Below, piece by piece: positions 17,885 to 36,740 of a stretch of 64,000 nt of DNA. The stretch is from a phage. How positions within the stretch are numbered: position 1 is the stretch's first letter; each line of letters begins with the position of its first letter. The DNA is taken from sequence record PX994957.1; one strand, given 5' to 3'. A program made the translations under genes and the position numbers. The notes under the pieces were generated by a model. It worked only from the letters and a program-made list of their open reading frames with translations. It searched no databases and had not been told where the DNA came from.

Positions 17885-20800
17885 ATGGCCGAGATTAAAA
17901 GAAAGTTCAGAGCAGAAGACGGTCTGGACGCAGGTGGTGATAAAATAATCAACGTAGCTTTAGCTGATCGTACCGTAGGAACTGACGGTGTAAACGTTGA
18001 TTACTTAATTCAAGAAAACACAGTTCAACAATATGATCCAACTCGTGGATATTTAAAAGATTTTGTAATCATTTATGATAACCGCTTTTGGGCTGCTATA
18101 AATGATATTCCAAAACCAGCAGGAGCTTTTAATAGCGTACGATGGAGAGCGTTACGCACTGATGCAAACTGGACAACTGTTTCGTCAGGACCTTATCAAT
18201 TAAAATCAGGCGAATCGATTTCAGTTAACACCGCAGCGGGTAATGACATTACATTTACTTTGCCATCTTCTCCAATTGATGGTGATACTATCGTTCTCCA
18301 AGATATTGGAGGAAAACCTGGAGTTAACCAGGTTTTAATTACAGCTCCGGTACAAAGCATTGTAAACTTTAGAGGTCAACAAGTACGCTCAGTACTAATG
18401 ACTCATCCAAAATCACAGATAGTTTTAATTTTTAGTAATCGTCTGTGGCAAATGTATGTTGCTGATTATAGCAGAGAAGCGGCAGTTGTAACACCAGCAA
18501 GTCTTTATCAAGCGCAATCAAACGATTTTATCGTACGTAGATTTACTTCTGCTTCAGCAATTAATATTAAACTTCCTAGATTTGCTAATCATGGGGATAT
18601 TATTAATTTTGTTGATTTAGATAAATTAAATCCACTTTATCACACAATTGTTACCACGTATGATGAAACAACTTCAGTACAAGAAGTTGGAACTCATTCT
18701 ATTGAAGGCCGTACATCTATTGATGGTTTCTTAATGTTTGATGATAATGAGAAATTGTGGAGATTGTTTGACGGGGATAGTAAAGCACGTTTACGCATTA
18801 TAACGACTAATTCTAATATTCGCCCAAATGAAGAAGTCATGGTATTTGGCGCGAATAATGGAACACCCCAAACAATTGAACTTCAGCTTCCAACTGATAT
18901 TTCTATCGGTGATACTGTTAAGATTTCCATGAATTATATGAGAAAAGGACAAACAGTTAAAATCAAAGCTGCCGGTGAAGATAAAATTGCTTCTTCAGTT
19001 CAATTGCTGCAATTTCCAAAACGTTCAGAATACCCACCTGAAACTAAATGGGTGACTGTTCAAGAATTAGTTTTTAATGGCGAAACCAATTATGTTCCAG
19101 TTTTACAGCTTGCTTATATTGAAGATTCCGATGGAAAATATTGGGTTGTACAGCAAAACGTTCCAACTGTAGAAAGAGTAGACTCTTTAAATAATTCTAC
19201 TAGAGCAAGATTAGGCGTAATTGCTTTAGCTACACAGGCTCAAGCTAATGCTGATCTAGAAAATTCTCCACAAAAAGAACTGGCAATTACTCCAGAAACG
19301 TTAGCTAATCGTACTGCTACAGAAACTCGTAGAGGTATTGCAAGAATAGCAACAACTGCGCAAGTAAACCAGGATACCACATTCTCTTTTGCAGATGATA
19401 TTATCATCACTCCTAAAAAGCTGAATGAAAGAACAGCTACTGAAACTCGTAGGGGTGTCGCTGAAATTGCTACGCAGCAAGAAACAAACACAGGAACAGA
19501 TGATACAACCATCATTACTCCTAAAAAGCTTCAAGCTCGTCAAGGTTCTGAATCATTATCTGGTATTGTAACTTTTGTATCTACTGCAGGTGCTACTCCG
19601 GCTTCTAGCCGTGAATTAAATGGTACAAATGTTTATAATAAAAACACTAATAACTTAGTTGTTTCACCTAAAGCATTGGATCAGTATAAAGCTACTCCAA
19701 CGCAACAAGGTGCAGTAATTTTAGCAGTTGAAAGTGAAGTAATTGCTGGTCAAAGTCAAGAAGGATGGGCAAATGCTGTTGTAACGCCAGAAACGTTACA
19801 TAAAAAGACATCAACTGATGGAAGAATTGGTTTAATTGAAATTGCTACGCAAAGTGAAGTTAATACAGGAACTGATTATACTCGTGCAGTCACTCCTAAA
19901 ACTTTAAATGACCGTAGAGCAACTGAAAGTTTAAGTGGTATAGCTGAAATTGCTACACAAGTTGAATTCGACGCAGGCGTCGACGATACTCGTATCTCTA
20001 CACCATTAAAAATTAAAACTAGATTTAATAGTACTGATCGTACTTCTGTTGTTGCTCTATCTGGATTAGTTGAATCAGGAACTCTCTGGGACCATTATAC
20101 CCTTAATATTCTTGAAGCAAATGAGACACAACGTGGTACACTTCGTGTGGCTACACAAGTTGAAGCTGCTGCTGGAAAATTAGATAATGTTTTAATAACT
20201 CCTAAAAAGCTTTTAGGTACTAAATCTACCGAATCGCAAGAAGGTGTTATTAAAGTTGCAACTCAGTCTGAAACTGTGGCTGGAACGTCAGCAAACACTG
20301 CTGTATCTCCAAAAAATTTAAAATGGATTGTACAGAGTGAACCTACCTGGGCAGCTACTACTGCGATAAGAGGTTTTGTTAAAACTTCATCTGGTTCAAT
20401 TACATTTGTCGGTAATGATACAGTCGGTTCTACCCAAGATTTAGAACTGTATGAGAAAAATAGCTATGCAGTATCACCATATGAATTAAACCGTGTATTA
20501 GCAAATTATTTACCGTTAAAAGCAAAAGCTGCTGATAGTAATTTATTGGATGGTCTAGATTCATCTCAGTTCATTCGTAGGGATATTGCACAGACGGTTA
20601 ATGGTTCACTAACCTTAACCCAACAAACGAATCTGAGTGCCCCTCTTGTATCATCTAGTACTGCTACGTTCGGTGGATCAGTTTCAGCAAATAGTACATT
20701 AACTATTTCTAATACTGGAACAGCAACTCGATTGATTTTTGAGAAAGGACCTCAAACTGGAACAAACCCAGCCCAAACGATGACTGTTAGAGTGTGGGGA

Positions 20801-21754
20801 AATCAATTTAGTGGGGAATTAGATACAACACGTTCTACCGTATTTGAAGTTAGTGATGAAACATCTAGTCATTTTTATTCTCAGCGCAATAAAGCCGGAA
20901 ATATAACATTTAATATCAACGGTACAGTAACACCGATAAATGTTAATGCTTCAGGAACATTGAATGCAAATGGCGTAGCAACATTTGGTAATTCAGTCAC
21001 TGCAACTGGTGAAATTATTTCTCGAAGCGCAAATGCTTTCCGTGCTATTAACGGAAATTACGGTTTCATTGTTCGCAATGATGGATCAGTAACGAATTTT
21101 ATGCTTACTGCATCGGGTGATCAGACTGGTGGATTTAATGGATTACGCCCATTAGCTATTAATAATGCATCTGGCCAAGTAACGATTGGTGAAAGCTTAA
21201 TCATTGCCAAAGGTGCTACTATAAATTCAGGTGGTTTGACTGTTAACTCGAGAATTCGTTCTCAAGGTACTAAAACATCTGACTTATATACACGTGCGCC
21301 AACATCTGATACTGTAGGATTCTGGTCAATTGATATTAACGATTCAGCTACTTATAACCAGTTCCCAGGTTATTTTAAAATGGTTGAAAAAACTAATGAA
21401 GTGACTGGTCTTCCATATTTAGAACGTGGCGAAGAAGTTAAATCTCCTGGTACACTGACTCAGTTTGGTAACACACTTGATTCGCTTTACCAAGATTGGA
21501 TTACTTATCCAACAACGCCAGAAGCGCGTACCACTCGCTGGACACGCACATGGCAGAAAACCAAAAATTCTTGGTCAAGTTTTGTTCAGGTATTTGATGG
21601 AGGTAATCCTCCTCAACCATCTGATATTGGTGCTTTACCATCTGATAATGCTACAATGGGTAATCTTACTATTCGTGATTTCTTACGAATTGGTAATGTT
21701 CGCATTATTCCTGACCCAGTGAATAAAACTGTTAAATTTGAATGGGTTGAATAA
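17885..21754 (+). CDS. 34: long tail fibre proximal subunit gp34
   Basis: 1289 aa; internal fibre repeats; T4 synteny. Confidence 0.93.
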   Translation: MAEIKRKFRAEDGLDAGGDKIINVALADRTVGTDGVNVDYLIQENTVQQYDPTRGYLKDFVIIYDNRFWAAINDIPKPAGAFNSVRWRALRTDANWTTVSSGPYQLKSGESISVNTAAGNDITFTLPSSPIDGDTIVLQDIGGKPGVNQVLITAPVQSIVNFRGQQVRSVLMTHPKSQIVLIFSNRLWQMYVADYSREAAVVTPASLYQAQSNDFIVRRFTSASAINIKLPRFANHGDIINFVDLDKLNPLYHTIVTTYDETTSVQEVGTHSIEGRTSIDGFLMFDDNEKLWRLFDGDSKARLRIITTNSNIRPNEEVMVFGANNGTPQTIELQLPTDISIGDTVKISMNYMRKGQTVKIKAAGEDKIASSVQLLQFPKRSEYPPETKWVTVQELVFNGETNYVPVLQLAYIEDSDGKYWVVQQNVPTVERVDSLNNSTRARLGVIALATQAQANADLENSPQKELAITPETLANRTATETRRGIARIATTAQVNQDTTFSFADDIIITPKKLNERTATETRRGVAEIATQQETNTGTDDTTIITPKKLQARQGSESLSGIVTFVSTAGATPASSRELNGTNVYNKNTNNLVVSPKALDQYKATPTQQGAVILAVESEVIAGQSQEGWANAVVTPETLHKKTSTDGRIGLIEIATQSEVNTGTDYTRAVTPKTLNDRRATESLSGIAEIATQVEFDAGVDDTRISTPLKIKTRFNSTDRTSVVALSGLVESGTLWDHYTLNILEANETQRGTLRVATQVEAAAGKLDNVLITPKKLLGTKSTESQEGVIKVATQSETVAGTSANTAVSPKNLKWIVQSEPTWAATTAIRGFVKTSSGSITFVGNDTVGSTQDLELYEKNSYAVSPYELNRVLANYLPLKAKAADSNLLDGLDSSQFIRRDIAQTVNGSLTLTQQTNLSAPLVSSSTATFGGSVSANSTLTISNTGTATRLIFEKGPQTGTNPAQTMTVRVWGNQFSGELDTTRSTVFEVSDETSSHFYSQRNKAGNITFNINGTVTPINVNASGTLNANGVATFGNSVTATGEIISRSANAFRAINGNYGFIVRNDGSVTNFMLTASGDQTGGFNGLRPLAINNASGQVTIGESLIIAKGATINSGGLTVNSRIRSQGTKTSDLYTRAPTSDTVGFWSIDINDSATYNQFPGYFKMVEKTNEVTGLPYLERGEEVKSPGTLTQFGNTLDSLYQDWITYPTTPEARTTRWTRTWQKTKNSWSSFVQVFDGGNPPQPSDIGALPSDNATMGNLTIRDFLRIGNVRIIPDPVNKTVKFEWVE

Positions 21755-21762
21755 GAGGTATT

Positions 21763-22878
21763 ATGGAAAAATTTATGGCAGAGTTTGGACAAGGATATGT
21801 CCAAACGCCATTTTTATCGGAAAGCAATTCAGTAAGATATAAAATAAGTATAGCGGGTTCTTGCCCGCTTTCTACCGCAGGACCATACGTTAAATTTCAA
21901 GATAATCCTGTAGGAAGTCAAACATTTAGTGCAGGTCTTCATTTAAGAGTTTTTGACCCTTCTACAGGAGCATTGGTTGATAGTAAGTCATATGTTTTTT
22001 CTACTTCAAATGATACAACATCTGCTGCTTTTGTTAGTTTCATGAATTCTTTTTCAAGCAATAGACTTGTTGCTATATTAACTAGCGGAAAGGTTAATTT
22101 TCCTCCTGAAGTAGTATCTTGGTTAAGAACGGCAGGAACATCTGCTTTTCCATCTGATTCTTTATTGTCAAGATTTGACGTATCATATGCTGCCTTTTAC
22201 ACTTCTTCTAAAAGAGCTATCGCACTAGAGCATGTTAAACTGAGTAACAGAAAAAGCACAGATGACTATCAAACTATATTAGATGTAGTATTTGATAGTT
22301 TAGAAGATGTTGGAGCGACAGGATTTCCTAAAAGAACATATGAAAGCGTTGAGCAATTTATGTCAGCTGTTGGTGGAACTAATAACGAAATTGCACGTCT
22401 ACCTACAGCATCTGCAATAAGTAAACTTTCTGACTATAATTTAATTCCTGGAGATGTTCTTTATCTTAAAGCACAACTATATGCTGACGCTGATTTATTA
22501 GCGTCGGGAACTACTAATATTTCAATTCGTTTTTATAATGCGTCAAATGGATATATTTCCTCGACACAAGCTGAGTTTACTGGACAGGCTGGGTCTTGGG
22601 AATTAAAGGAAGACTATGTAGTTGTTCCAGAAAATGCAGTTGGATTTACGATATATGCACAGAGAACTGCACAAGCGGGTCAAGGCGGTATGAGAAATTT
22701 AAGCTTTTCTGAAGTGTCAAGAAATGGTGGCATTTCAAAACCTGCTGAGTTTGGCGTCAATGGTATTCGAGTTAATTATATCTGTGAATCTGCTTCACCT
22801 CCTGATATAATGGTACTTCCTACACAAGCATCGTCTAAAACTGGTAAAGTGTTTGGGCAAGAATTTAGAGAAGTTTAA
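21763..22878 (+). CDS. 35: long tail fibre hinge (knee) protein gp35
   Basis: 371 aa; T4 synteny. Confidence 0.88.
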   Translation: MEKFMAEFGQGYVQTPFLSESNSVRYKISIAGSCPLSTAGPYVKFQDNPVGSQTFSAGLHLRVFDPSTGALVDSKSYVFSTSNDTTSAAFVSFMNSFSSNRLVAILTSGKVNFPPEVVSWLRTAGTSAFPSDSLLSRFDVSYAAFYTSSKRAIALEHVKLSNRKSTDDYQTILDVVFDSLEDVGATGFPKRTYESVEQFMSAVGGTNNEIARLPTASAISKLSDYNLIPGDVLYLKAQLYADADLLASGTTNISIRFYNASNGYISSTQAEFTGQAGSWELKEDYVVVPENAVGFTIYAQRTAQAGQGGMRNLSFSEVSRNGGISKPAEFGVNGIRVNYICESASPPDIMVLPTQASSKTGKVFGQEFREV

Positions 22879-22883
22879 ACTGA

Positions 22884-22910
22884 GGGAGCCTTCGGGTTCC
22901 CTTTTTCTTT
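22884..22910 (+). terminator. stem-loop terminator after gene 35 (UUCG tetraloop hairpin plus U-run)
   Basis: GGGAGCC-UUCG-GGUUCCC followed by UUUUUCUUU. Confidence 0.65.
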
Positions 22911-22917
22911 ATAAATA
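22910..22917 (+). promoter_or_regulatory. late promoter TATAAATACTATT for genes 36-37-38-t
   Basis: exact extended late consensus 23 nt upstream of the gene 36 ATG. Confidence 0.8.
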
Positions 22918-22940
22918 CTATTAAAATAAAGGGGCATACA

Positions 22941-23597
22941 ATGGCTGATTTAAAAGTAGGTTCAACAACTGGAGGCTCTGTCATTTGGCATCAAGGAAAT
23001 TTTCCATTGAATCCAGCCGGTGACGATGTACTCTACAAATCATTTAAAATATATTCAGAATATAATAAACCACAAGCAACTGATAACGATTTCGTTTCTA
23101 AAGCTAATGGTGGTACTTATTTAAATAAAGTAATTTTTAATAAAGGAATGACTGTTCCTGGTGCTGGGTCAGGTGACAACGGTATTTTTGCCGGTCCTGG
23201 TGATAATGCCACATATGATACTACAAATATGGATATTGTCTCATGGTATGGTATCGGCTTTAAATCATCACAAGGGGCAGCAGGTAGAACTGTAGTAATT
23301 AACACACGAAACGGAGATATTAGCTCAAAGGGTGTAATTGAAGCATCACAAATACGCGCAACTTCGTTATCACCAGTAAATAATTATGACCTTACGAGAA
23401 AAGATTATGTTGATGGGGCAATAAATATTGTTACAACAAATGCAAACTCTAGAGTATTACGCTCTGGAGACACTATGACAGGAAATTTAACTGCGCCAAA
23501 CCTTTTTTCACAGAATCCTGCATCTCAACCCTCGCATGTTCCGCGATTTGACCAAATCGTAATTAAGGATTCTGTTCAAGATTTCGGCTATTATTAA
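22941..23597 (+). CDS. 36: long tail fibre distal connector gp36
   Basis: 218 aa; T4 synteny. Confidence 0.88.
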   Translation: MADLKVGSTTGGSVIWHQGNFPLNPAGDDVLYKSFKIYSEYNKPQATDNDFVSKANGGTYLNKVIFNKGMTVPGAGSGDNGIFAGPGDNATYDTTNMDIVSWYGIGFKSSQGAAGRTVVINTRNGDISSKGVIEASQIRATSLSPVNNYDLTRKDYVDGAINIVTTNANSRVLRSGDTMTGNLTAPNLFSQNPASQPSHVPRFDQIVIKDSVQDFGYY

Positions 23598-23605
23598 GAG
23601 GACTT

Positions 23606-26600
23606 ATGGCTACTTTAAAACAAATACAATTTAAAAGAAGCAAAACGGCAGGTCAACGTCCAGCTGCTTCAGTATTAGCCGAAGGTGAATTGGCTATAAA
23701 CTTAAAAGATCGTGTACTTTTTACTAAAGATGATCAAGGAAATATTATTGACTTAGGTTTTGCTAAAGGCGGTAGTATTGACGGGAATGTTATTCATAAA
23801 GGTAATTATAACCAAACTGGTGATTATACTTTAAACGGTACATTCACCCAGACTGGTAATTTTAATTTAACTGGTATTGCTCGAGTAACTCGTGATATTA
23901 TTGCTGCTGGGCAGATTATGACTGAAGGCGGAGAACTTATTACAAAAAGTTCAGGTACATCACATGTTCGTTTTCATGATTCAGCTGACCGTGAACGTGG
24001 AATCATTTTTTCTCCTGCTAATGATGGATTAACTACACAAGTAATTAACATCAGAGTTCAAGATTACAAAGCTGGTTCAGAAAGCACTTTCGTTTTTAAT
24101 GGAAATGGTTTGTTTTCTTCACCAGAAGTTTTTGGGTGGAAATCTGTATCAACTCCGGTAATTTATACCAATAAAGTTATCACCAATAAAAAAGTTAAAG
24201 ATGATTATGACATCTATTCGATGGCAGATAATGTTCCATTATCTGAAAGCACTACTGCTATTAATCATCTTCGTGTTATGCGTAATGCAGTTGGTTCTGG
24301 TATTTTCCATGAAGTTAAAGATAATGATGGAATAACATGGTATAGTGGAGATGGATTAGACGCTTATCTTTGGTCATTTACTTGGAGCGGCGGAATTAAA
24401 TCAAGTCACTCAATTTCCATCGGTTTAACACCCGGACCTAAGGATTACTCAATATTAGGACCGTCTAGTATCGCTTTAGGAGATAATGATACTGGATTTA
24501 AATGGCATCAAGACGGATATTATTTCAGTGTTAATAATGGCACAAAAACGTTTTTATTTAGCCCTAGCGAAACAACTAGCCTAAGAAAATTTGTAGCTGG
24601 ATATTCTACTAATGGAACCGATTTAACTACTCCTCCGACTGAAAACTATGCTCTTGCTACTGTCGTGACATATCATGACAATAACGCGTTTGGAGATGGT
24701 CAGACTCTTTTGGGGTATTATCAAGGCGGTAGATATCACCATTACTTTCGCGGAAGAGGAACAACTAATATTAATACTGCTGGAGGGTTATTAGTTACTC
24801 CTGGTAATATTGATGTTATTGGCGGTTCTGTTAATATCGATGGTAGAAATAATGCTTCTACAGCTCTGTTTAAAGGTAACACAACAGGTAGTAGTTCTGT
24901 GGATAACATGACAATTTCTGTGTGGGGTAATACATTTACTAATCCTAGCGAAGGTAATCGCAAAAATGTCATGGAAATTTCCGATGCAACTAGCTGGATG
25001 AGCTATATTCAAAGACTTACTACTGGTGAAGTAGAAATGAACGTTAACGGTTCATTTGAATCATCTGGTGTTACTGCTGGAAATAGAGGAGTTCACACAA
25101 CAGGCGAAATTTCATCTGGAGCAGTGAATGCTCTTCGCATTTGGAATGCAGATTATGGAGCCATTTTTAGACGTTCAGAAGGTAGTCTTCATATTATTCC
25201 AACTGCTTACGGTGAAGGCAAAAATGGTGATATCGGTCCACTTCGTCCATTTAGTATTGCTTTGGATACTGGTAAGGTTGTTATTCCAGATTTAGAATCA
25301 AGTTATAACACGTTTGCTGCAAATGGCTACATTAAATTTGCTGGTCACGGCGCGGGTGCAGGTGGTTATGATATTCAGTATTCACAAGCTGCTCCTATTT
25401 TCCAAGAAATCGATGATGCTGCTGTAAGCAAATATTATCCTATTGTTAAACAGAAGTTTTTAAACGGTAAAGCTGTCTGGTCTTTAGGTACTGAAATTAA
25501 TTCAGGTACATTTGTTTTACATCATCTAAAAGAAGATGGTTCACAAGGCCATACATCAAGATTTAATGCTGATGGTACAGTTAATTTCCCCGATAATGTT
25601 CAAGTCGGCGGCGGTGAAGCTACTATTGCTCGTAATGGTAATATCTTCTCTGATATTTGGAAAACATTTACTTCTGCCGGAGATACTACAAATATTCGCG
25701 ATGCGATAGCTACTCGTGTTGCCAAAGAAGGCGATACGATGACTGGCAAATTAATCGTTAGAAGAGGCTCTGACGCTATTAACATTGCTGCCGATGAAAA
25801 TGATTCTTGCTATTTACTTGGAACATCGGGTGGAGCGAATTCATGGTACATCGGTAAAGGAGGAGCAGATGACACTGCTTCATTTTATAATTTCAAAACT
25901 ACCGCAGGAATTACTCTTAATAGTGTTGGTGATATTGATTTTAACGTCAAAAATCAAGCTACTGCAGCTTCATTAAATTTTTATCGTTTATATTTAAATG
26001 GAAGACAATGGACAGCTACACAAGGTCACGGCTATAATAATCAATGGCAAACAGAAGCCCCATTCTTCGTTGACTTTGGTGAATCTGTTCCGAAAGATAG
26101 TTATATGCCTATAATTAAAGGAAGAAGCCAAATCATTAACGAAGGATATGCCACAAAGGCAGATTTTGGTATTATTCGATTGGGTGGAAATGCTACTTGG
26201 GGAAATGCAGTAATTCGTGTTGGTTCTGCGGAAAGCGGAGATAGCAGCCATCCTAATGCAATATTTGTGTTTCAGGCTAATGGTGATTTTAAAGCTCCGG
26301 CTGGCCTTCGTGCTGGTGTTAACTTGGGCGTCGGCACAATTCCAGTATGGGGTGGAGCATCTATCGCCATCGGGGATGATGATACCGGTTTAGTTCATGG
26401 CGGCGATGGTCGAATTAATATGTATGCTAACGCGCAGCATATAGCATCATGGGGCACGATGTATCAATCTCATCCAGGCCTTTGGGATTCAAATGGAGCT
26501 TTTTGGACAGAAGTTGGCAAAGCAATTATTTCTCATGGCCATTTAGTTCAGGCGAATGACAGCTATTCAACGTATGTCCGCGATGTTTATGTCCGCTCTG

Positions 26601-26932
26601 ATATTCGTGTTAAAAAGGACCTAGTTAAATTTGAAAATGCTTCTGAGAAGCTTTCAAAAATTAATGGTTACACTTATATGCAGAAGCGAGGCCTAGATGA
26701 AGAAGGTAATCAGAAATGGGAACCAAACGCTGGGTTAATTGCTCAAGAAGTTCAAGCTATTTTACCTGAATTGGTTGAAGGCGATCAGGATAGTGAAGCT
26801 TTACTTCGTTTGAACTATAACGGTGTAATTGGTTTAAATACAGCTGCAATCAATGAGCATACTGCAGAAATTGCAGAACTTAAGTCAGAGATTGAAGAGC
26901 TTAAAAAATTAGTTAAATCATTGTTAAAATAA
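23606..26932 (+). CDS. 37: long tail fibre distal subunit gp37 with C-terminal intramolecular chaperone (autoproteolytic) domain
   Basis: 1108 aa; C-terminal RSDIRVKKD ... LNYNGVIGL ... coiled-coil resembles S74-type self-cleaving chaperone domains. Confidence 0.9.
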
Positions 26933-26936
26933 AATG

Positions 26937-26950
26937 AGGGGCTTCGGCCC
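26937..26950 (+). promoter_or_regulatory. UUCG-tetraloop hairpin between gene 37 stop and gene 38 RBS
   Basis: GGGGC-UUCG-GCCCC immediately 5' of GGAGG and the gene 38 ATG. Confidence 0.5.
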
Positions 26951-26963
26951 CTTGGAGGTTTAT

Positions 26964-27758
26964 ATGGCAGTTGAAGGACCGTGGGTAGGATGGTCTGCGA
27001 GGGTACAAACTGGAGACCCTTGGATGGGTGGTGCCGCGCAGAGATTGAGAATGGGAATTCCGTTTTGGATGAGTAATATGATAGGTCGATCTGTTGAAGT
27101 AATTCACACCCTTGGAGCGGACCATAACTTTAATGGTCAATGGTTCCGAGATAGATGTTTTGAGGCAGGTAGTGCACCTATAGTGTTTAATATTACCGGA
27201 AATTTGGTATCATATTCTAGAGACGTTCCTTTATTCTTCATGTACGGAGATACACCTAATGAATATGTTCAGTTGAATATTGGTGGCGGCGTCCATATGT
27301 GGGGTAGAGGTGGACAAGGTGGATGGACTCATTCCGGCGGAGATGGTAATGGTCAACAAGGTGGTCATTGTATTCAAAATGACATCGGTGGACGATTAAG
27401 AATTAATAACGGTGGAGTAATTTGTGGTGGAGGTGGAGGTGGAGGTGGTATCGCTTATCGTCCTCACTCTGGTGCAAATTGGCAAGATATTGGTGGTGGT
27501 GGAGGAAGACCATTTGGCCCAGGAGGAGGCGGAGGTTATTCCGGCGGCGCAGCTTCTTATGATGGCCCAGGAGGTGGTTATAATTATGGTAATGCTCACT
27601 CTGGCCAGGGTGGTGATGCTGGCGCAAATGGACAAAATGCCTGGTATGATGGCGGTAAAGTTCTAAAAGTTGGAGCTGGTGGCGCTGCCGGATATGCTGT
27701 TATAGGATCAGCTCCAACATGGCAAAATGTTGGAGTAATATATGGTCCAAGGGTATAA
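26964..27758 (+). CDS. 38: tail fibre adhesin gp38 (T2-type, glycine-rich)
   Basis: 264 aa from [10 protein letters not shown] with GGAGG RBS; several poly-Gly blocks. Confidence 0.85.
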
Positions 27759-27789
27759 TTTTGAATAAATATCCTTAAAAGGAGGGTCT

Positions 27790-28446
27790 ATGGCAGCACC
27801 TAGAATATCATTTTCGCCCTCTGATATTCTATTTGGTGTTCTAGATCGCTTGTTCAAAGATAACGCTACCGGGAAAGTTCTTGCTTCCCGGGTAGCTGTC
27901 GTAATTCTTTTGTTTATGATGGCGATTGTTTGGTATAGGGGAGATAGTTTCTTTGAGTACTATAAGCAATCAAAGTATGAAACATACAGTGAAATTATTG
28001 AAAAGGAAAGAAATGCACGCTTTGAATCTGTCGTCCTGGAACAACTCCAGATAGTTCACATATCATCTGAGGCAGACTTTAGTGCGGTGTATTCTTTCCG
28101 CCCTAAAAACTTAAACTATTTTGTTGATATTATAGCATATGAAGGAAAATTACCTTCAACAATAAGTGAAAAATCACTTGGAGGATATCCTGTTGATAAA
28201 ACTATGGATGAATATGCAGTTCATTTAAATGGACGTCATTATTATTCCAACTCAAAATTTGCTTTTTTACCAACTAAAAAGCCTACTCCCGAAATAAACT
28301 ACATGTACAGTTGTCCATATTTTAATTTGGATAATATCTATGCTGGAACAATAACCATGTACTGGTATAGAAATGATCATATAAGTAATGACCGCCTTGA
28401 ATCAATATGTGCCCAGGCGGCCAGAATATTAGGAAGGACTAAATAA
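27790..28446 (+). CDS. t: holin T
   Basis: 218 aa; N-terminal TM segment; matches recalled T4 T. Confidence 0.93.
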   Translation: MAAPRISFSPSDILFGVLDRLFKDNATGKVLASRVAVVILLFMMAIVWYRGDSFFEYYKQSKYETYSEIIEKERNARFESVVLEQLQIVHISSEADFSAVYSFRPKNLNYFVDIIAYEGKLPSTISEKSLGGYPVDKTMDEYAVHLNGRHYYSNSKFAFLPTKKPTPEINYMYSCPYFNLDNIYAGTITMYWYRNDHISNDRLESICAQAARILGRTK

Positions 28447-28719
28447 TTATTTGTTCGTATACATCTCTAGATATCGATATACACCCTCAAAACCCTCGTT
28501 GAATTCGTCGATGAGGGTTTTCTTATCTTCTTGAGTTAATTCAGAAACAATTTTACGGAATGAATTCTGATTTAATTTTCTACCTTCATGCATTACTCCA
28601 ATCTCATTCAGAAATGCAATAAAATTAGCACGATTCTCAACAATATCTTCTCTGGAAAATTTAATCAAAATAGACGCAACAGTAATAATTTCACGAACTG
28701 TATCAATATTTTTATTCAT
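28447..28719 (-). CDS. asiA: anti-sigma70 factor AsiA
   Basis: 90 aa; matches recalled T4 AsiA. Confidence 0.92.
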   Translation of the reverse strand: MNKNIDTVREIITVASILIKFSREDIVENRANFIAFLNEIGVMHEGRKLNQNSFRKIVSELTQEDKKTLIDEFNEGFEGVYRYLEMYTNK

Positions 28720-28731
28720 TAACTATACCAC

Positions 28732-28884
28732 TCAATTAGTTGACTTTGTTATAATATCATCAGACGTTTGTTTTGTAAACTGGTCTGTGTTATTTTCTTG
28801 AAAAATTTTTTCTACGAATTCCTTGAACGACTCACGTTCCTGAGCTACATTATGCTCGATTACTTTTTCAAGATTATGACTCAT
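28732..28884 (-). CDS. hypothetical small protein, 50 aa
   Basis: own translation; ATG overlaps the arn stop (ATGA). Confidence 0.4.
   Translation of the reverse strand: MSHNLEKVIEHNVAQERESFKEFVEKIFQENNTDQFTKQTSDDIITKSTN
28750..28780 (-). promoter_or_regulatory. sigma70-type early promoter upstream of asiA
   Basis: minus strand GTTTAC-N18-TATTATAAC. Confidence 0.5.
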
Positions 28885-29159
28885 TCGAAATAATCTTCAA
28901 TTTCATAATCATGGACATAAATCATTATAGTTTTTAATACATCATCAATACTTTTTCCTGGAGCTGGAATTACGTAAAAATATCCTGCTTTTGAGAGGTC
29001 TTTATAAGTTCCAATCAAGAAATCATTATTCTCGAGATGTAGTTCTTCAACTAATTCATTAACAATTGAGTGGTATAAATTTGGTAGAAACTTATACAGC
29101 TTTTCTAGAATATCAATTTTGATTGTGTATTGAACCACAGACTGAGAATCAATAATCAT
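28881..29159 (-). CDS. arn: anti-restriction nuclease Arn (McrBC inhibitor)
   Basis: 92 aa acidic protein; size and position as T4 arn. Confidence 0.75.
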   Translation of the reverse strand: MIIDSQSVVQYTIKIDILEKLYKFLPNLYHSIVNELVEELHLENNDFLIGTYKDLSKAGYFYVIPAPGKSIDDVLKTIMIYVHDYEIEDYFE

Positions 29160-29242
29160 AGACCTTCCCCTTATGTTTCTGTTTGCGATTAGATTCTTTA
29201 AACGCTTTCTTCTTATCCTTATGAACAGAAGCTTTATTAAAA

Positions 29243-29461
29243 TTATGTTTTGCGACTAAATTGTTCATAATGCTGAATTACCTCTCTTAAACATTTGCAT
29301 GTGAATGAGAACTTTTTAGCTACACCACATTCAAATATATGTTCTCTTAAATCACGTATATCAGTATATCCCATCTCAACAATAAAATGCCTTATTAGAT
29401 TTTTATCTTTATCATTGAGAGAATTAAAATAATCAGATTTTGAATTAATTTCCCTGGCCAA
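29243..29461 (-). CDS. hypothetical protein, 72 aa
   Basis: ORF track. Confidence 0.5.
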   Translation of the reverse strand: MAREINSKSDYFNSLNDKDKNLIRHFIVEMGYTDIRDLREHIFECGVAKKFSFTCKCLREVIQHYEQFSRKT

Positions 29462-29741
29462 ATTGAATCACCTTCAGTTGACGTTTTAATTCTTTTATCA
29501 TTTCTTCGTTCATCGCAATATAAAGATCGCGTAAAGCAGGTTTTAGCATTCCATTTACCGGAGAACTAAATGGGCATACATAATCTTTTCCTACAAGCTT
29601 TTTGGTAAATTCCATATCACAAAATTTAAATGCTGGCTCATTCGCATAAATTCCCCAATTAGTTGACATCATTTTATTGGCATATTCCAATGCCTGAATT
29701 TGATTCATAATTCCATCGATTTGAAACTTTTTAATATTCAT
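29445..29741 (-). CDS. hypothetical protein, 98 aa
   Basis: ORF track. Confidence 0.5.
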   Translation of the reverse strand: MNIKKFQIDGIMNQIQALEYANKMMSTNWGIYANEPAFKFCDMEFTKKLVGKDYVCPFSSPVNGMLKPALRDLYIAMNEEMIKELKRQLKVIQFGQGN

Positions 29742-30202
29742 TAGTAAAGGTCCTCAGAGTAAAGTTCTTTTTCACTACCACCACGTTCAATACGTACTTG
29801 TCCAGCGTAAGTTGCAATAATCATTGCTTCTTCACGTGTCCAATAATTACTATATTGGTCAATAAACCCTTGGTCATCATCACAAACTTGTTGAGTAACT
29901 AATTGAGGTTTAACTACATCTAAAACTTCGGCCATATCTTTAGAATAATGACGAGCACCTGGAATAATAAGAGTTCGTCCATCTTTTAATTTAAAACGGT
30001 TGGCTGCGCAGACAATTCGTCGTTGATACTTTTGGTTTTCATCCCAATATGCAGTCTGCCAACATATTTCAGGAACTTCTTTTAGAATATCTTCTTCTGT
30101 GCATTTATAACCATGCGCTTTAAATTTTTCAGCAAGACTTTCTGGAGTTTCACGAGATAAAGGAACATTCAGCATTTTTAAACGATTGATAAATGGGTTC
30201 AT
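29741..30202 (-). CDS. hypothetical protein, 153 aa
   Basis: ORF track. Confidence 0.55.
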
Positions 30203-30528
30203 TTAAACCATCCTTTAATACGTTGCCACAAAGTTTTCTGTTGAGCTTTGTTAACACCAATTGAGCGAATAACTGGTTGAGATTCCTGGAATTCTTTATA
30301 ATCAGCAAGGTAAATTTCGTAAGCTGCATCTGTAAAGGAACTTATCGCTGCCATGAAATTATTGCGAATACCTACTGGAGCATCTTTACTTTCACGAATA
30401 ATCATGTATTTACCAGTCTTAATCTTTACAATAGTTCCAAGATAAGCTCCATGGTACCAAATATCCCAACCCTCTTGAGTAGGTTCTGCACAACGACGAA
30501 GTTCATTGACAATTTCTAACTTGTTCAT
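30199..30528 (-). CDS. hypothetical protein, 109 aa
   Basis: ORF track. Confidence 0.55.
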
Positions 30529-30538
30529 TATTTATTCC

Positions 30539-31174
30539 TCACAGTTCAGATGCTACAGTGATTACAGCTTCAATGTTTTCTGCCGAGCGTTTAATGTCAA
30601 GATACACATTACCGTTTTTAGCGATTTTACATGACATTCCGATATCAGTAAATTTCTGAATATGATGTTCCATCATTTTGTATCCAAAAATTCGCATATT
30701 TCCATTGTTGTTAATTTCAAAATTACGAATTCCGTGAGTACGTTTTTCTAAAATAGCGAGATAGTTACTACGATAAGTTTCAACCTTTTTAAGAACAAAT
30801 CCATTTTCATCTAAAAGTTTTAACATGAGGTCTTTATCTTCTTCCATATCAGAAGTAATTTCGCGAGCTTTACGAGTTGCTCGTTTTTTCAGTAGTTCCG
30901 GAGCATTTTCCTGTGCGTATAAAGTTGCTGCATTTGAAATAATATCCTGAGCTTCACCAGTAATGATTAATCCATCACCTGATTTCTCCACCAGGCCTTT
31001 TTTAATCAACACCCCAATATTACTATTAACTACTGCGTTACCTAAATCTGGATGCACCTCACGAACTTCTGCAGCTGTAATGAAATCTTTCTTAGCAATA
31101 GTAATTAAAATCGCAGCAGTTTTTTCATTCAGAACATCGTTAGAAGCTTTGATGATGTAAGTTACTTTAGACAT
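30539..31174 (-). CDS. motA: middle-transcription activator MotA (intact)
   Basis: 211 aa; matches recalled T4 MotA. Confidence 0.93.
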   Translation of the reverse strand: MSKVTYIIKASNDVLNEKTAAILITIAKKDFITAAEVREVHPDLGNAVVNSNIGVLIKKGLVEKSGDGLIITGEAQDIISNAATLYAQENAPELLKKRATRKAREITSDMEEDKDLMLKLLDENGFVLKKVETYRSNYLAILEKRTHGIRNFEINNNGNMRIFGYKMMEHHIQKFTDIGMSCKIAKNGNVYLDIKRSAENIEAVITVASEL

Positions 31175-31215
31175 TTTCTAATCTCCGTAATTCTGTATCA
31201 GTAGTTGATAGTTGT

Positions 31216-31245
31216 ATAGTACCACAGTATGCTTTGGTTGTAAAC
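31216..31245 (-). promoter_or_regulatory. sigma70-type early promoter for motA with conserved leader box
   Basis: minus strand GTTTAC-N18-TACTAT; leader box gtagttgatagttgtatagtacca. Confidence 0.6.
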
Positions 31246-31271
31246 CGTTTTGTGAAAAAAAAAATTAAAAT

Positions 31272-31297
31272 AAAAAAGGGAGAGCCTCGGCTCTCCC
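31272..31297 (-). terminator. rho-independent terminator (copy A)
   Basis: GGGAGAGCC-GAG-GCUCUCCC followed by U6 on minus strand. Confidence 0.7.
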
Positions 31298-31302
31298 TAA
31301 AA

Positions 31303-31452
31303 TTACTGCATGACTGTGATAACTGTCATGATAACACGTTGAATTCCGAACGCAAGAAGACCTCCTGCTACGGCTGGAACAACACCTAAACCCGCCAGTA
31401 AAATGCTACCGGATACTAATGCAGCGCTTGTAATACCTATGAATGGACTCAT
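31303..31452 (-). CDS. small hydrophobic membrane protein, 49 aa (copy A)
   Basis: own translation MSPFIGITSAALVSG...; ATG overlaps upstream stop (ATGA). Confidence 0.5.
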   Translation of the reverse strand: MSPFIGITSAALVSGSILLAGLGVVPAVAGGLLAFGIQRVIMTVITVMQ

Positions 31453-32174
31453 TTGATTTCCTCTAAATCTTTAGTGTATTCGGTAACTACATTAGTAGTT
31501 TTCCAATATTCGTTTTCTTCTTTCTTAGCTTTAGCTTCTTCAGCAAGTTTCTTTGCTTCGTCGGAAGTCATATGAAAAATATTCATTCCAACTAGTTTAT
31601 CAACATAAGAAGAATACATATCGATTTTCGAAAGTTCTTCGGTCAGTTCTTTGCGAGTTTTACCCTGCACAACGATTTCACCTGAAATTACTTTCTTAAT
31701 GAAATGTGCCTTGGCAAAGGCTAAACGAAAAGCTGACTCAGTTTCTTTGATTTTGTTATCAATTCGTTTTTGGACATAAGTTTTACGAACTTCAACAAAG
31801 TCTTTAATTAAATCAAGTTTTAACATGAGGTCTTTATCTTCTTCCATATCAGAAGTAATTTCGCGAGCTTTACGAGTTGCTCGTTTTTTCAGTAGTTCCG
31901 GAGCATTTTCCTGTGCGTATAAAGTTGCTGCATTTGAAATAATATCCTGAGCTTCACCAGTAATGATTAATCCATCACCTGATTTCTCCACCAGGCCTTT
32001 TTTAATCAACACCCCAATATTACTATTAACTACTGCGTTACCTAAATCTGGATGCACCTCACGAACTTCTGCAGCTGTAATGAAATCTTTCTTAGCAATA
32101 GTAATTAAAATCGCAGCAGTTTTTTCATTCAGAACATCGTTAGAAGCTTTGATGATGTAAGTTACTTTAGACAT
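31449..32174 (-). CDS. chimeric ORF: MotA residues 1-120 fused in frame to gp52 residues 322-442
   Basis: 241-aa ORF; N-terminal half identical to motA, C-terminal half identical to the gene 52 3' end; lies on the duplication junction 31816/31817. Confidence 0.8.
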   Translation of the reverse strand: MSKVTYIIKASNDVLNEKTAAILITIAKKDFITAAEVREVHPDLGNAVVNSNIGVLIKKGLVEKSGDGLIITGEAQDIISNAATLYAQENAPELLKKRATRKAREITSDMEEDKDLMLKLDLIKDFVEVRKTYVQKRIDNKIKETESAFRLAFAKAHFIKKVISGEIVVQGKTRKELTEELSKIDMYSSYVDKLVGMNIFHMTSDEAKKLAEEAKAKKEENEYWKTTNVVTEYTKDLEEIK

Positions 32175-32215
32175 TTTCTAATCTCCGTAATTCTGTATCA
32201 GTAGTTGATAGTTGT

Positions 32216-32245
32216 ATAGTACCACAGTATGCTTTGGTTGTAAAC
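32216..32245 (-). promoter_or_regulatory. duplicate copy of the motA early promoter, now upstream of the chimeric ORF
   Basis: identical to 31216-31245. Confidence 0.6.
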
Positions 32246-32271
32246 CGTTTTGTGAAAAAAAAAATTAAAAT

Positions 32272-32297
32272 AAAAAAGGGAGAGCCTCGGCTCTCCC
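32272..32297 (-). terminator. rho-independent terminator (copy B)
   Basis: identical to 31272-31297. Confidence 0.7.
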
Positions 32298-32302
32298 TAA
32301 AA

Positions 32303-32452
32303 TTACTGCATGACTGTGATAACTGTCATGATAACACGTTGAATTCCGAACGCAAGAAGACCTCCTGCTACGGCTGGAACAACACCTAAACCCGCCAGTA
32401 AAATGCTACCGGATACTAATGCAGCGCTTGTAATACCTATGAATGGACTCAT
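32303..32452 (-). CDS. small hydrophobic membrane protein, 49 aa (copy B)
   Basis: identical to 31303-31452. Confidence 0.5.
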   Translation of the reverse strand: MSPFIGITSAALVSGSILLAGLGVVPAVAGGLLAFGIQRVIMTVITVMQ

Positions 32453-33777
32453 TTGATTTCCTCTAAATCTTTAGTGTATTCGGTAACTACATTAGTAGTT
32501 TTCCAATATTCGTTTTCTTCTTTCTTAGCTTTAGCTTCTTCAGCAAGTTTCTTTGCTTCGTCGGAAGTCATATGAAAAATATTCATTCCAACTAGTTTAT
32601 CAACATAAGAAGAATACATATCGATTTTCGAAAGTTCTTCGGTCAGTTCTTTGCGAGTTTTACCCTGCACAACGATTTCACCTGAAATTACTTTCTTAAT
32701 GAAATGTGCCTTGGCAAAGGCTAAACGAAAAGCTGACTCAGTTTCTTTGATTTTGTTATCAATTCGTTTTTGGACATAAGTTTTACGAACTTCAACAAAG
32801 TCTTTAATTAAATCAACTACGTTATCGTAAACTTGTAGTTTTCCTTTCTCATTAATAACCGTAATATTCTGAGAACGACGCTCAATCAACCCGAAGTCTT
32901 TCATAATTTTTGCATGGCGTTCTTCTTCGTTATCGCTCAAAGAATATTCTTTACGGAATTTAACTTTGAATCCAAAACCATGCTCACCACAAGCATCATC
33001 CCATGTAATGAAGCCTTTATCTTCAAGTGGGTCTAAGATTTTACTCACATAAGTTTCACGATCATACTTATACGGAATCTCAGTGATATGCATTTGAGTT
33101 CGTGAAGTAAACTTATATGTTCCACGAATTTCATATTGGCCATCAATCTCAACGACTTCACCACGAAATTCTGGGAATTCTACCTTCGGTTTAGTTACTT
33201 TCTTTCCTTGAAGAGCTTGTAATACAGCTTTCTTAACAGAAGAAACACTATGAGGAAGAATGTAAGTTGCATAACCAGTTGCAATACCGGAAACACCATT
33301 AAGAAGAACAGTAGGAATAATAGGCAAATAGAAAGCAGGCGGAATGTGTTCTTTATCTTGATGTACCGGAGCATATTCAGTATCTTTATATACGTTATAG
33401 AAATTTTTACTTACACGAGCAAAAATATAACGACTTGCTGCTGCTTTTTGGACGGTACGAGAACCAAAGTTTCCTTGACCATCTAACAGAGGAAAATTAT
33501 TATTCCAAGTGTTAGCCATCAAAGCACCTGCGTCTTGCGCAGAGTTTTCACCATGATGATATCCAAGGTCCGCTACACCACCTGCAATAGAAGCGAGTTT
33601 GTGAAACTTATCTTTATTTCCTCGTGCCAAATCAAGAGCTCGAGCAATAACAAATCGTTGAACTGGCTTAAATCCGTCAATCATATTTGGAATGGCACGA
33701 TTTTCAACCGTGTACATAGCATAAGCCAATGCTTCATTATCAATGATACTTTTTAAATCGCGATTATTCAGTTGCAT
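32449..33777 (-). CDS. 52: DNA topoisomerase II medium subunit gp52 (GyrA-like, intact)
   Basis: 442 aa; catalytic-Tyr region AASRYI; T4 synteny. Confidence 0.93.
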   Translation of the reverse strand: MQLNNRDLKSIIDNEALAYAMYTVENRAIPNMIDGFKPVQRFVIARALDLARGNKDKFHKLASIAGGVADLGYHHGENSAQDAGALMANTWNNNFPLLDGQGNFGSRTVQKAAASRYIFARVSKNFYNVYKDTEYAPVHQDKEHIPPAFYLPIIPTVLLNGVSGIATGYATYILPHSVSSVKKAVLQALQGKKVTKPKVEFPEFRGEVVEIDGQYEIRGTYKFTSRTQMHITEIPYKYDRETYVSKILDPLEDKGFITWDDACGEHGFGFKVKFRKEYSLSDNEEERHAKIMKDFGLIERRSQNITVINEKGKLQVYDNVVDLIKDFVEVRKTYVQKRIDNKIKETESAFRLAFAKAHFIKKVISGEIVVQGKTRKELTEELSKIDMYSSYVDKLVGMNIFHMTSDEAKKLAEEAKAKKEENEYWKTTNVVTEYTKDLEEIK

Positions 33778-33781
33778 AAAT

Positions 33782-33928
33782 TTACCATACTAGTGAATGT
33801 AGTGCCATAATAACATCAGAAATGAAAAGCACGACTTGAATTAATCCGAACATTACTCCATAATATAGTGCTACTAATAAAGTAGCAAGGGCTAATGAAT
33901 AGCCCAAGATTTTCTTAATCATTTTCAT
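33782..33928 (-). CDS. small hydrophobic membrane protein, 48 aa
   Basis: own translation MKMIKKILGYSLALATLLVAL... Confidence 0.4.
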   Translation of the reverse strand: MKMIKKILGYSLALATLLVALYYGVMFGLIQVVLFISDVIMALHSLVW

Positions 33929-34067
33929 TTAATAGCCAAAACAATGATAAAATTGCTAATACGCCTTGAGCTGTTGCTTGTAAAAATACTGAAGTTTCTC
34001 CAGTTATTACTGTTCCGGCGAATAAAAAGGACCAGCAGAAAAAGGCTATACCATAAACAAATTTCAT
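33915..34067 (-). CDS. ac: small hydrophobic membrane protein, 50 aa (position and size like T4 ac)
   Basis: own translation MKFVYGIAFFCWSFLFAG...; immediately downstream of stp. Confidence 0.4.
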   Translation of the reverse strand: MKFVYGIAFFCWSFLFAGTVITGETSVFLQATAQGVLAILSLFWLLNEND

Positions 34068-34074
34068 ATTTTCC

Positions 34075-34155
34075 TCACTGGCGTCCGAAGACGCCTTTAG
34101 TTTTAAAATTATTACGATAGAACTGCATCACATGTTCGTTATGGAAATTACTCAT
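34075..34155 (-). CDS. stp: Stp peptide (26 aa)
   Basis: own translation [26 protein letters not shown] matches recalled T4 Stp; ATG overlaps the ndd stop. Confidence 0.7.
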
Positions 34156-34613
34156 TAATATGCCTGCAAAACGAATTTAAAGTTATCAGCCAACATACGG
34201 TTCATTTCTTCAAGTGTTTGATACTCAGAATGATGATTACGAGTAAACGCTAAAGCTAACTGTCCTTTTCCAAATCCCGTCGTCAGAGGTTTCATCTTAG
34301 AAGCAGGCAGATAAAACACTGTGTATGGAACATTGTTATTTGCAATAGTACGTGCAAGCTGAGACCGACGTTGACGAATATGACTTAGAACTGCACTGAA
34401 TCCTTGCTTAGAACGCTGATTACCTACATAAAATCGTGCTGACACACATGGATTACTAAATGGACGACCATCTAATTTACTTACTAAAAAGTAAAATCCA
34501 GGTTTAGATAAAATATCTTTATGCGGAGTTCCCAAAAACCACTCACCGCCCTTGATTGTACCAATAACAGTAGCACCTGCATCATTCAGATCAGTAACAG
34601 TCATATATTTCAT
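34155..34613 (-). CDS. ndd: nucleoid disruption protein Ndd
   Basis: 152 aa from MKYMTVTDL; matches recalled T4 Ndd. Confidence 0.88.
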
Positions 34614-34673
34614 ATTAATTTCCTCTAAATTATTTTCTACTCCAAGGCCGCATGAATACACACGGCCATTAAA

Positions 34674-34889
34674 TTAATCGTCGCAGTCGACGCTCAATTC
34701 CCAAAACTCTTCTACGGTATAAGTTTCAGTATCATTTTCAATACAGAAACGTTCATTACTGTTATTTGCTAAAGTAGCGTTAACTGTCGGTTTCTCGCTA
34801 GTGCTCTTAAGAGGTGAAATACGAATTAACTGATCACCGTTATCTAAACAGAAAATTTCACCAACTTTTACATCTTTAAAACTTTTCAT
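34674..34889 (-). CDS. hypothetical protein, 71 aa
   Basis: ORF track. Confidence 0.5.
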   Translation of the reverse strand: MKSFKDVKVGEIFCLDNGDQLIRISPLKSTSEKPTVNATLANNSNERFCIENDTETYTVEEFWELSVDCDD

Positions 34890-35004
34890 AATTCACCTCA
34901 AGGAGTATAAAATCCAAATGCAGTTGTTGACCATCCCATCCAATATGGAAAATTTGCACCAATGTAAAACATAAGAATATAAAACCAACCGCTCAACAAA
35001 TTCA

Positions 35005-35223
35005 TCATTTTACACCATTCCAAATTGTTTCAACTACTGATTTTAAACCATTTTGATAAATATCCATTCCGACTACTGCCATCAAATAGATTCCAACTAC
35101 AACTGAACCTAAGGCGAAAATCAGCATAAAAATAAATAAAGTCGGAAAAATATTATCGAAAAACCATTCAATAAATGTAAAAGCACCGCGTTTACGCTTC
35201 ATATTTTCCTCACATAAATCCAA
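35005..35223 (-). CDS. small membrane protein, 72 aa
   Basis: ORF track; hydrophobic. Confidence 0.5.
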   Translation of the reverse strand: MDLCEENMKRKRGAFTFIEWFFDNIFPTLFIFMLIFALGSVVVGIYLMAVVGMDIYQNGLKSVVETIWNGVK

Positions 35224-35323
35224 AATAAGCGTTTAACATATCAATCATTAAAACGATTGGGAATATACTCAAAACTATTAGTATTATAACTACATTCCAT
35301 ATAGCTTTAACAATCTTTTTCAT
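35210..35323 (-). CDS. small membrane protein, 37 aa (MKKIVKAIWNVVIILIVL...)
   Basis: internal ATG with GGAGGAA RBS directly downstream of early promoter. Confidence 0.45.
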   Translation of the reverse strand: MKKIVKAIWNVVIILIVLSIFPIVLMIDMLNAYFGFM

Positions 35324-35350
35324 TTTGTGTTCCTCCGTAGTTGATAGTTG

Positions 35351-35381
35351 TATAGTACCACAGAGGAACAGTCTTGTAAAC
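35351..35381 (-). promoter_or_regulatory. sigma70-type early promoter with conserved leader box
   Basis: minus strand GTTTAC-N18-TACTAT. Confidence 0.55.
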
Positions 35382-35598
35382 AACTTTTTTAAAAATATTC
35401 GTAATAAATGTGAATACCAACTACTACCGCTGAAACCTGTGCAACCCACCACGCGCAAGCAATAAGTACAGAATTAAAAATTTTCATAATAACCTCATCA
35501 CAAAAGTAAATGTTAAACAAATTAATGGAATACTAATTAACCAAACAAAACACCACCATAATGAACTCATAGTTCAATCTCAACGATTTTCATTTTAC

Positions 35599-35817: not shown

Positions 35818-35838
35818 ATCCGTATCAGTTGATAGTTG

Positions 35839-35869
35839 TATATTACCACAGTCCTTGTGGTATGTAAAC
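35839..35869 (-). promoter_or_regulatory. sigma70-type early promoter with CCACA-N5-TGTGG palindrome between -35 and -10
   Basis: minus strand GTTTAC ... CCACAAGGACTGTGG TAATAT. Confidence 0.55.
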
Positions 35870-35884
35870 CGTTTGTGAAAATTT

Positions 35885-36735: not shown

Positions 36736-36740
36736 TTATT

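Follow-up and report, generated by a model that had tools for sequence, protein, structure and literature searches.

A T2/S16-type receptor-recognition module with a mosaic gp38 adhesin in the long tail fibre locus of a T-even phage

Introduction

At the tip of T2/S16-type long tail fibres, a monomeric adhesin, gp38, caps the trimer of gp37; its glycine-rich motifs form a polyglycine-II sandwich and its hypervariable loops bind porins, whereas the gp38 of T4 is a chaperone instead (PMC6851490, PMC12032242, PMC12892980, PMC3157838). In S16, the tryptophans of gp38 serve as prongs that enter pockets of gp37 (PMC6851490), and the last 113 residues of gp37 are autocleaved at LNVS/SDRRIKK after trimerisation, as stated in PMC7917993, which cites Dunne et al. 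2018; according to the same source, the surface on which gp38 docks is uncovered only upon release of this chaperone. Receptors have been assigned to several members of the group: RB32 depends on OmpA and shows sensitivity to the core of the lipopolysaccharide (LPS), a 400-bp block of hypervariable segments (HVS) transferring its specificity to RB5 (PMC3157838), and AV119 is OmpA-dependent and belongs to 'type 1' (PMC12032242). Here we analyse the 3' end of gene 37 together with gene 38 (positions 26560-27758) in a stretch of 64,000 nucleotides (nt) from the phage sequence record PX994957.1, the whole of which is called the window below. This segment lies among the late tail-fibre genes of a T-even phage (Tequatrovirus), and it very probably encodes the receptor-recognition module of a long tail fibre of the T2/S16 type, not of the T4 type, working by the mechanism proposed below. 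On every defining feature that can be read from sequence, gp37 and gp38 classify as members of two well-defined families. Such a module decides which bacteria are adsorbed, and has practical use in phage typing, in biocontrol and in engineering against Shiga-toxin-producing E. coli. Published work already covers the architecture of such modules, the autocleaving chaperone, the polyglycine fold of the adhesin and the modular shuffling of parts, and the exact sequence is present in GenBank with a matching annotation. The additions made here are modest, namely a map of a natural chimera, a prediction of OmpA as receptor contrary to the PP01-like flank, and two polymorphic loop residues.

The gp38 Adhesin

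Gene 38 lies directly 3' of gene 37 and 5' of the holin gene t, which is the position of gp38 in phages of the T2/T6/S16 type. Its start is the ATG at 26964, preceded by GGAGG at a distance of about 6 nt, and all homologues begin there with MAV or MAI. An ATG at 26934, from which a mechanical open reading frame (ORF) call gives 274 residues, was rejected as the start because it falls in the region of the intergenic hairpin and is without a Shine-Dalgarno sequence, while the homologues and the record of Escherichia phage vB_EcoM-Sa45lw (hereafter Sa45lw) start at 26964. The length of 264 residues given in the initial annotation, which had been made from the sequence alone, is thus borne out, as is its identification of the protein as a T2-type adhesin: the Pfam families Gp38_N (PF21721, residues 1-40, E=1.4e-19) and GP38 (PF05268, E=1.3e-68) both match, and full-length gp38 retrieves from the PDB the receptor-binding domain of PP01 gp38 (9V85, E=4e-73) and S16 gp38 (6F45_D, E=1e-48). 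The beta-helix and polyglycine-II sandwich predicted for gp38 rest on these two sequence matches, which extend over the full domain. Tryptophans characteristic of the attachment domain are present as W7, W20 and W35, the first two being nearly invariant in an alignment of 11 gp38 sequences (alignment A1).

Glycine makes up 26.9% of gp38 overall and 36% of residues 111-264, with runs at 107-109, 155-162 (G8), 177-181, 187-191 and 203-205. The glycine-rich blocks comprise WGRGGQGG (113-120), the G8 run (155-162), a stretch at 177-191, GGG (203-205), GQGG (214-217) and GAGGAAG (237-243), and the invariant columns of alignment A1 include G114-G117, G155-G162 and G177-G181 with R182 and P183. As in other adhesins of the T2/T6/S16 type, these motifs, including the GGGGGGGG helix, alternate with hypervariable segments. 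When the five loops A-E defined for PP01 gp38 (PMC12892980) were mapped onto the alignment, they fell at residues of about 120-128, 165-174, 189-192, 207-211 and 227-233, and these are the columns of highest per-column entropy. Accordingly, the alignment to related adhesins that had been suggested for delimiting the hypervariable segments agrees with the view that poly-Gly blocks separate them, invariant glycine columns bracketing all five loops. By analogy with S16, T2, T6 and PP01 (PMC6851490, PMC3157838, PMC12892980), gp38 is expected to be carried in the virion at the tip of the fibre and to set the receptor.

Natural Chimera and Recombination Junctions

Mapping of the mosaic on a four-way DNA alignment (alignment A3) shows that gp38 is a natural recombinant, in which an attachment end of the Sf23/PP01 type is joined to a specificity domain of the RB32 type. 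The window and Shigella phage Sf23 are without a mismatch over 26573-27193, a block of 621 nt that takes in the gp37 chaperone domain, the hairpin between the genes and the first 77 codons of gp38. The window and RB32 are likewise without a mismatch over 27111-27799, except at 27479 and 27645. At the protein level, gp38 residues 1-49 are 100% identical to Sf23 and 53% identical to RB32, whereas residues 47-264 differ from RB32 at two places only, N172K and Y228H (the window has N172 and Y228). Both nucleotide changes are non-synonymous, the first falling in loop B (residue 172, codon 27477-27479) and the second in loop E (residue 228, codon 27645-27647). The downstream crossover falls within a conserved, predicted beta-helix segment of gp38, outside the glycine-rich motifs, in a zone where all three phages are the same (Table 1). 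Sf23 diverges from the window upstream of about 26560, with 13-32 mismatches per 50 nt, and the junction can be placed at 26555-26572. The start of 26560 that the initial annotation had given to the module lies 37 nt upstream of the S998 codon, almost on this upstream junction, and therefore coincides with the second end of the exchanged block.

Residues 172 (N, K or R) and 228 (Y, H or S), in six combinations, account for most of the amino acid variation among 10 phages that have an RB32-type specificity domain, and a few more substitutions occur elsewhere in the domain in AV119, HY03 and ESh30. The two residues are thus candidate sites of host-range tuning. The record of RB33 (KM607001.1, 156213-156680) has a 1-nt deletion in the specificity domain relative to both RB32 and the window, and its annotated coding sequence is truncated; as gp38 of RB33 is reported to be equal to that of RB32 (PMC3157838), this deletion is probably a sequencing error in a run of poly-G codons.

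Hybrids of this kind can work, since an engineered T2(1-113)/PP01 gp38 is functional, although only with an N-terminus that matches gp37 (PMC12892980). This requirement accounts for the fact that the natural chimera retains its attachment end paired with its own gp37 tip. A tentative extension, which we consider possible but not probable, is that chaperone domain, hairpin and gp38 attachment domain (26573-27193) move between phages as one cassette, recombining inside the beta-helix segment of gp38 with the specificity domains of other lineages, and that residues 172 and 228 form a two-site switch tuning the adhesin to OmpA variants or to hosts (O157, O45, Shigella, Salmonella).

Receptor Prediction

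With moderate to good confidence, the receptor is predicted to be OmpA, with dependence on the LPS core, and not the OmpC used by PP01, because RB32 and AV119 use OmpA. The receptor-binding domain is 99% identical to that of RB32, and gp38 residues 110-264 are 96% identical to AV119, so that the specificity domain is nearly the same as in adhesins with an experimental OmpA assignment, the 'type 1' group of RB32 and AV119. In contrast, residues 111-264 are only about 54% identical to the OmpC-binding domain of the PP01/Sf23 type.

Several points weigh against this prediction. The literature searched yielded no published receptor for wV7, KIT03 or Sa45lw. N172 and Y228, the two residues that differ from RB32, sit in predicted receptor loops, and single HVS changes alter the choice of receptor in the gp38 family (PMC3157838, PMC12032242), so that OmpA stands as a prediction and not as a certainty. 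Relatives with the RB32-type adhesin have been isolated on O157:H7, O45, Shigella and Salmonella hosts, and effective host range is also governed by the O-antigen and other factors.

It is therefore necessary to weigh a module of the same build with another receptor, either OmpC, as in PP01 and S16, or Tsx, OmpF or FadL, which would be in line with an O157:H7 host range like that of PP01 and with the loop substitutions relative to RB32. The identity of the gp37 chaperone domain and of gp38 residues 1-77 to Sf23 points in this direction, the gp38 of that phage being nearly equal to the OmpC-binding PP01 adhesin in alignment A1, and so does the location of the two substitutions in loops B and E, loop E being the determinant of specificity in PP01 (PMC12892980). 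Nevertheless, such a receptor is unlikely, as the domain that would make the contact has diverged widely from PP01 and is almost that of the two OmpA-dependent phages (PMC3157838, PMC12032242); moreover, N172 with Y228 and other combinations vary freely in the clade, which looks like fine-tuning within one receptor class.

The gp37 Tip and Its Chaperone Domain

The initial annotation had described the C-terminus of gp37 as an intramolecular chaperone/autoprotease module ending in a coiled coil, and this description is supported. The Peptidase_S74 family (PF13884) matches residues 998-1057 with E=1.2e-12 and 48.4 bits against a cut-off of 22, a result far from chance, and the match lies at the extreme C-terminus of the 1108-residue protein, where this family is expected. 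In the PDB, residues 915-1108 match S16 gp37 (6F45_A, E=9e-45 / 2.7e-44), and the tip of gp37 aligns with residues 23-92 of S16 gp37 in 6F45, the crystal complex of the gp37 trimer with gp38. The motifs RSDIRVKKD and LNYNGVIGL occupy residues 997-1005 (26594-26620) and 1069-1077 (26810-26836), respectively. The first of these contains the S-D-x-R-x-K signature, as SDIRVK, with Ser998 as the first residue of the domain and Lys1003 five residues further on. Across eight aligned T2-type gp37 C-termini (window, Sf23, ACG-C40, QL01, RB5, T2, slur11 and SEA1), S998, D999, R1001 and K1003 do not vary, although at least three subtypes of chaperone domain are represented. In the last 30 or so residues, which are 34% charged, 7 of the 9 heptad a/d positions are I, L or V (I1082, I1089, L1092, I1096, L1099, V1103 and L1106), and this pattern fits an amphipathic coiled-coil helix.

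When the chaperone domain alone was compared with the PDB as a single sequence, it retrieved S16 gp37 and, weakly, MYRF, and other S74 domains came within reach only with a profile of the eight homologues. That profile matches the MYRF ICA (7DC3, 3.6e-12), a tail fibre (8JOV, 5.6e-7) and the neck-appendage chaperone of GA-1 (3GUD, 1e-3); the chain of the released GA-1 domain starts exactly at the Ser that aligns with S998. T2 gp37 itself reportedly loses about 120 C-terminal residues (Drexler, Riede and Henning, 1986). K1F endosialidase and T5 pb1 also carry Peptidase S74 chaperones at their C-termini, and neither was retrieved by the PDB searches with the chaperone domain, whether as a single sequence or as the profile.

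VYVR/SDIRVKK of gp37 aligns with LNVS/SDRRIKK of S16, and since the SDxRxK pair thereby falls on the published S16 site, cleavage is predicted at R997/S998 (Ser codon 26597-26599), with autocleavage releasing a fragment of 111 residues. Alternatively, the S74-like domain could be kept uncleaved in the mature fibre, with gp38 binding elsewhere, and some deposited tail-fibre chains do retain the domain in their sequence (8JOV). This is highly improbable, as both catalytic residues are intact and invariant, the site coincides with that described for S16 in PMC7917993, and the same source has the docking surface of S16 gp38 bared only after release.

The contrast that had been drawn with T4, where gp38 is a chaperone and gp37 carries the tip, agrees with the literature (PMC12892980, PMC6851490, PMC12032242) and with the searches. 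Full-length gp37 matched no chain of the solved T4 gp37 tip at E<=0.01 among all PDB sequences, and its last 208 residues matched no T4 gp37 chain at E<=1; the C-terminus is thus without the homology to the T4 receptor-binding tip that a T4-type fibre would have, which excludes that arrangement at the level of sequence. Hence, a T4-type fibre, in which gp38 would be only an assembly chaperone absent from the virion and the gp37 C-terminus the receptor-binding tip, deserves hardly any credence: its one argument is that the wV7 and HY03 records call a near-identical protein a 'distal long tail fiber assembly catalyst', a name carried over from T4 nomenclature, and against it stand the matches of gp38 to the adhesin family PF05268 (1e-68) and to the adhesin crystals 9V85 and 6F45_D, and a gp37 that ends in an S74 chaperone domain. 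The label transfers the function of T4 gp38 through the name of the gene and is misleading for T2-type phages. Another public label for the RB32-type adhesin, 'tail protein and peptidase', is also misleading and is T4-derived or automated (these labels were found among records of wV7, HY03, ESh30 and UFV phages).

The interior of gp37 has a further domain. Residues 449-551 match Pfam Gp34_trimer, and residues 418-561 (24857-25288) resemble the C-terminal trimerisation domain of the proximal half-fibre protein gp34 (Gp34_trimer, 5e-8; PDB 4UXE/5NXF, about 1e-12). The two half-fibres therefore have a common domain.

Proposed Mechanism

In the mechanism that we propose for this T2/S16-type module, the order of assembly, the cleavage, the place of gp38 in the virion and the receptor are all modelled on homologues. 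gp37 would be made as a precursor of 1108 residues, whose C-terminal part (998-1108) would act as an intramolecular chaperone, trimerising through its terminal helical bundle and so providing a nucleus from which the trimeric beta-helical tip folds. After folding of the tip, the pair Ser998/Lys1003 would cut the R997-S998 bond and the chaperone would be released, exposing the gp37 trimer at its blunt end. There a single gp38 monomer would dock by means of the three-helix attachment domain at its N-terminus (W7, W20 and W35) and present the polyglycine-II sandwich formed by its glycine-rich motifs, from which the five variable loops may project to bind an outer-membrane protein.

Intergenic Hairpin and a Possible Late Promoter

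A hairpin with a UUCG loop separates the two genes (Table 1). In its context of 61 nt it folds with a minimum free energy of -18.5 kcal/mol (z=-2.7). GC-rich hairpins are found at the same spot between gp37 and gp38 in all nine T2-type loci compared (9/9), with differing stems and loops; the counterparts are AGAGGGCUUCGGCCCUCU in T2, AAGAGCCUCCGGGCUCUU in SEA1 and GGGGCUUUGCCCC in RB32. Inspection by eye and a single-sequence fold both show the hairpins. Only a weak consensus (-1.6 kcal/mol) came from RNAalifold applied to a MAFFT alignment of the intergenic regions, the stems being out of register in that alignment. C(UUCG)G hairpins are known in intercistronic regions of T4, and by analogy the element probably stabilises the mRNA or controls translation. 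As a terminator on the + strand it was rejected, since no T-run follows the stem; the only reading flagged by the scan is on the minus strand and has no meaning in this context. Between the gp38 stop and the start of holin t, the octamer AATAAATA (27764-27771) has one mismatch to the T4 late-promoter consensus TATAAATA, and a late promoter is annotated at the equivalent place in the record of Salmonella phage SEA1.

Locus and Relatives

The order gp35-gp36-gp37-gp38-t is the same as in T2, RB32, Sf23 and others. Over 26000-27800, the window is 100% identical to Sa45lw (MK977694.1, Tequatrovirus) and 99.1-99.7% identical to O157 typing phage 7, wV7 and KIT03. At the matching coordinates, the Sa45lw record names a 'large distal long tail fiber subunit' (gp37) and a 'tail fiber adhesin' (gp38). 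Beyond the tip module (20000-33800), scattered single-nucleotide polymorphisms separate the window from Sa45lw at 21500-24000, in gp35, gp36 and the N-terminus of gp37, and colinearity is lost from about 31700; the window is therefore from a close relative of Sa45lw, not necessarily from the same isolate. In the phage collection, no record was at least 99% identical to window positions 20000-40000 across their full length.

Between 26000 and 27750, the G+C content rises to 0.43-0.49 and the GC skew to +0.36, against about 0.35-0.38 G+C in the flanks. The increase in G+C comes largely from the GGN glycine codons of gp38, yet its onset lies in the gp37 tip, some 900 nt further upstream. Residues 58-127 of gp35 match the Pfam family ILEI (PF15711, 'Interleukin-like EMT inducer') with E=3.5e-7 and a score that exceeds the gathering threshold, a surprising family name for a fibre hinge protein of a phage.

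Table 1. Features of the long tail fibre locus, in window coordinates.
Feature	Position	Strand	Description	Basis
gp35	21763-22878		proximal hinge connector	ORF call
gp36	22941-23597			Pfam Phage_T4_gp36
Gene 37	23606-26932	+	distal long tail fibre subunit, 1108 residues including C-terminal chaperone domain	ORF
Predicted mature gp37 distal tip, residues 915-997	26348-26596	+	predicted gp38 docking platform; ends DVYVR997	
Intramolecular chaperone / S74 autoprotease domain, residues 998-1108	26597-26929	+	111 residues	Pfam PF13884, S16 alignment, heptads
Hairpin GAGGGGC-UUCG-GCCCCUU	26935-26954	+	8-bp stem, UUCG loop; between gp37 stop and gp38 Shine-Dalgarno GGAGG (26953-26957)	
Gene 38	26964-27758	+	tail-fibre adhesin, 264 residues	Pfam, PDB matches, Sa45lw annotation
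gp38 N-terminal attachment domain and linker, residues 1-49	26964-27110	+	Sf23/PP01 type	
Crossover zone, gp38 codons ~50-77	27111-27193	+	83 nt, window = Sf23 = RB32	
gp38 specificity domain, predicted beta-helix and polyglycine sandwich	27194-27755	+	RB32 type	alignment A1, loop mapping
Holin t	27790-28446			Phage_holin_T, E=7e-116

Comparison with Known Systems

The gp37-gp38 tip of S16 (PDB 6F45; Dunne et al. 2018) has the same gene order and the same gp37 tip followed by a chaperone domain (E=9e-45) with an aligned motif, autocleaving in S16 and predicted to be so in the window. The two gp38 proteins (E=1e-48) have in common an attachment domain with three tryptophans and the G8 run, together with the beta-helix and polyglycine sandwich that are predicted for the window. 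However, the two adhesins are only about 50% identical and have other variable loops, S16 gp38 binds the OmpC of Salmonella, and about 12 residues in the gp37 tip of the window form an insertion with respect to S16. With T2, the locus shares the architecture, the invariant SDxRxK and the glycine-rich motifs, but gp38 is 46% identical overall, T2 gp37 is longer, its chaperone domain is without the last helix extension, and its receptors are FadL/OmpF.

The closest relatives of the two halves of gp38 are different phages. The OmpA and LPS adhesin of RB32/RB33 (Trojet et al. 2011) is the same over residues 47-264 bar N172K and Y228H, whereas its first 49 residues are 53% identical and the gp37 chaperone domain of RB32 is of another subtype (one subtype reads SDRRLKINVEDY). 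Conversely, PP01/Sf23 gp38 (the OmpC adhesin; 9V85) is predicted to share the overall fold class, and DNA identity with Sf23 is 100% over the gp37 chaperone domain, the intergenic hairpin and codons 1-77 of gp38, but the specificity domain (residues 111-264) is about 54% identical and loops A-E differ, and a different receptor is therefore predicted. Other S74 domains, in the K1F endosialidase, GA-1 (3GUD), T5 pb1 and the MYRF ICA (7DC3), have in common with gp37 the initial Ser-Lys pair, a G-[LIV]-IAQE helix and a C-terminal helical bundle. They are distant in sequence (E=1e-3 to 1e-12, by profile only), and the module described here would differ from them in that release of the domain bares a docking site for a second protein, the gp38 adhesin.

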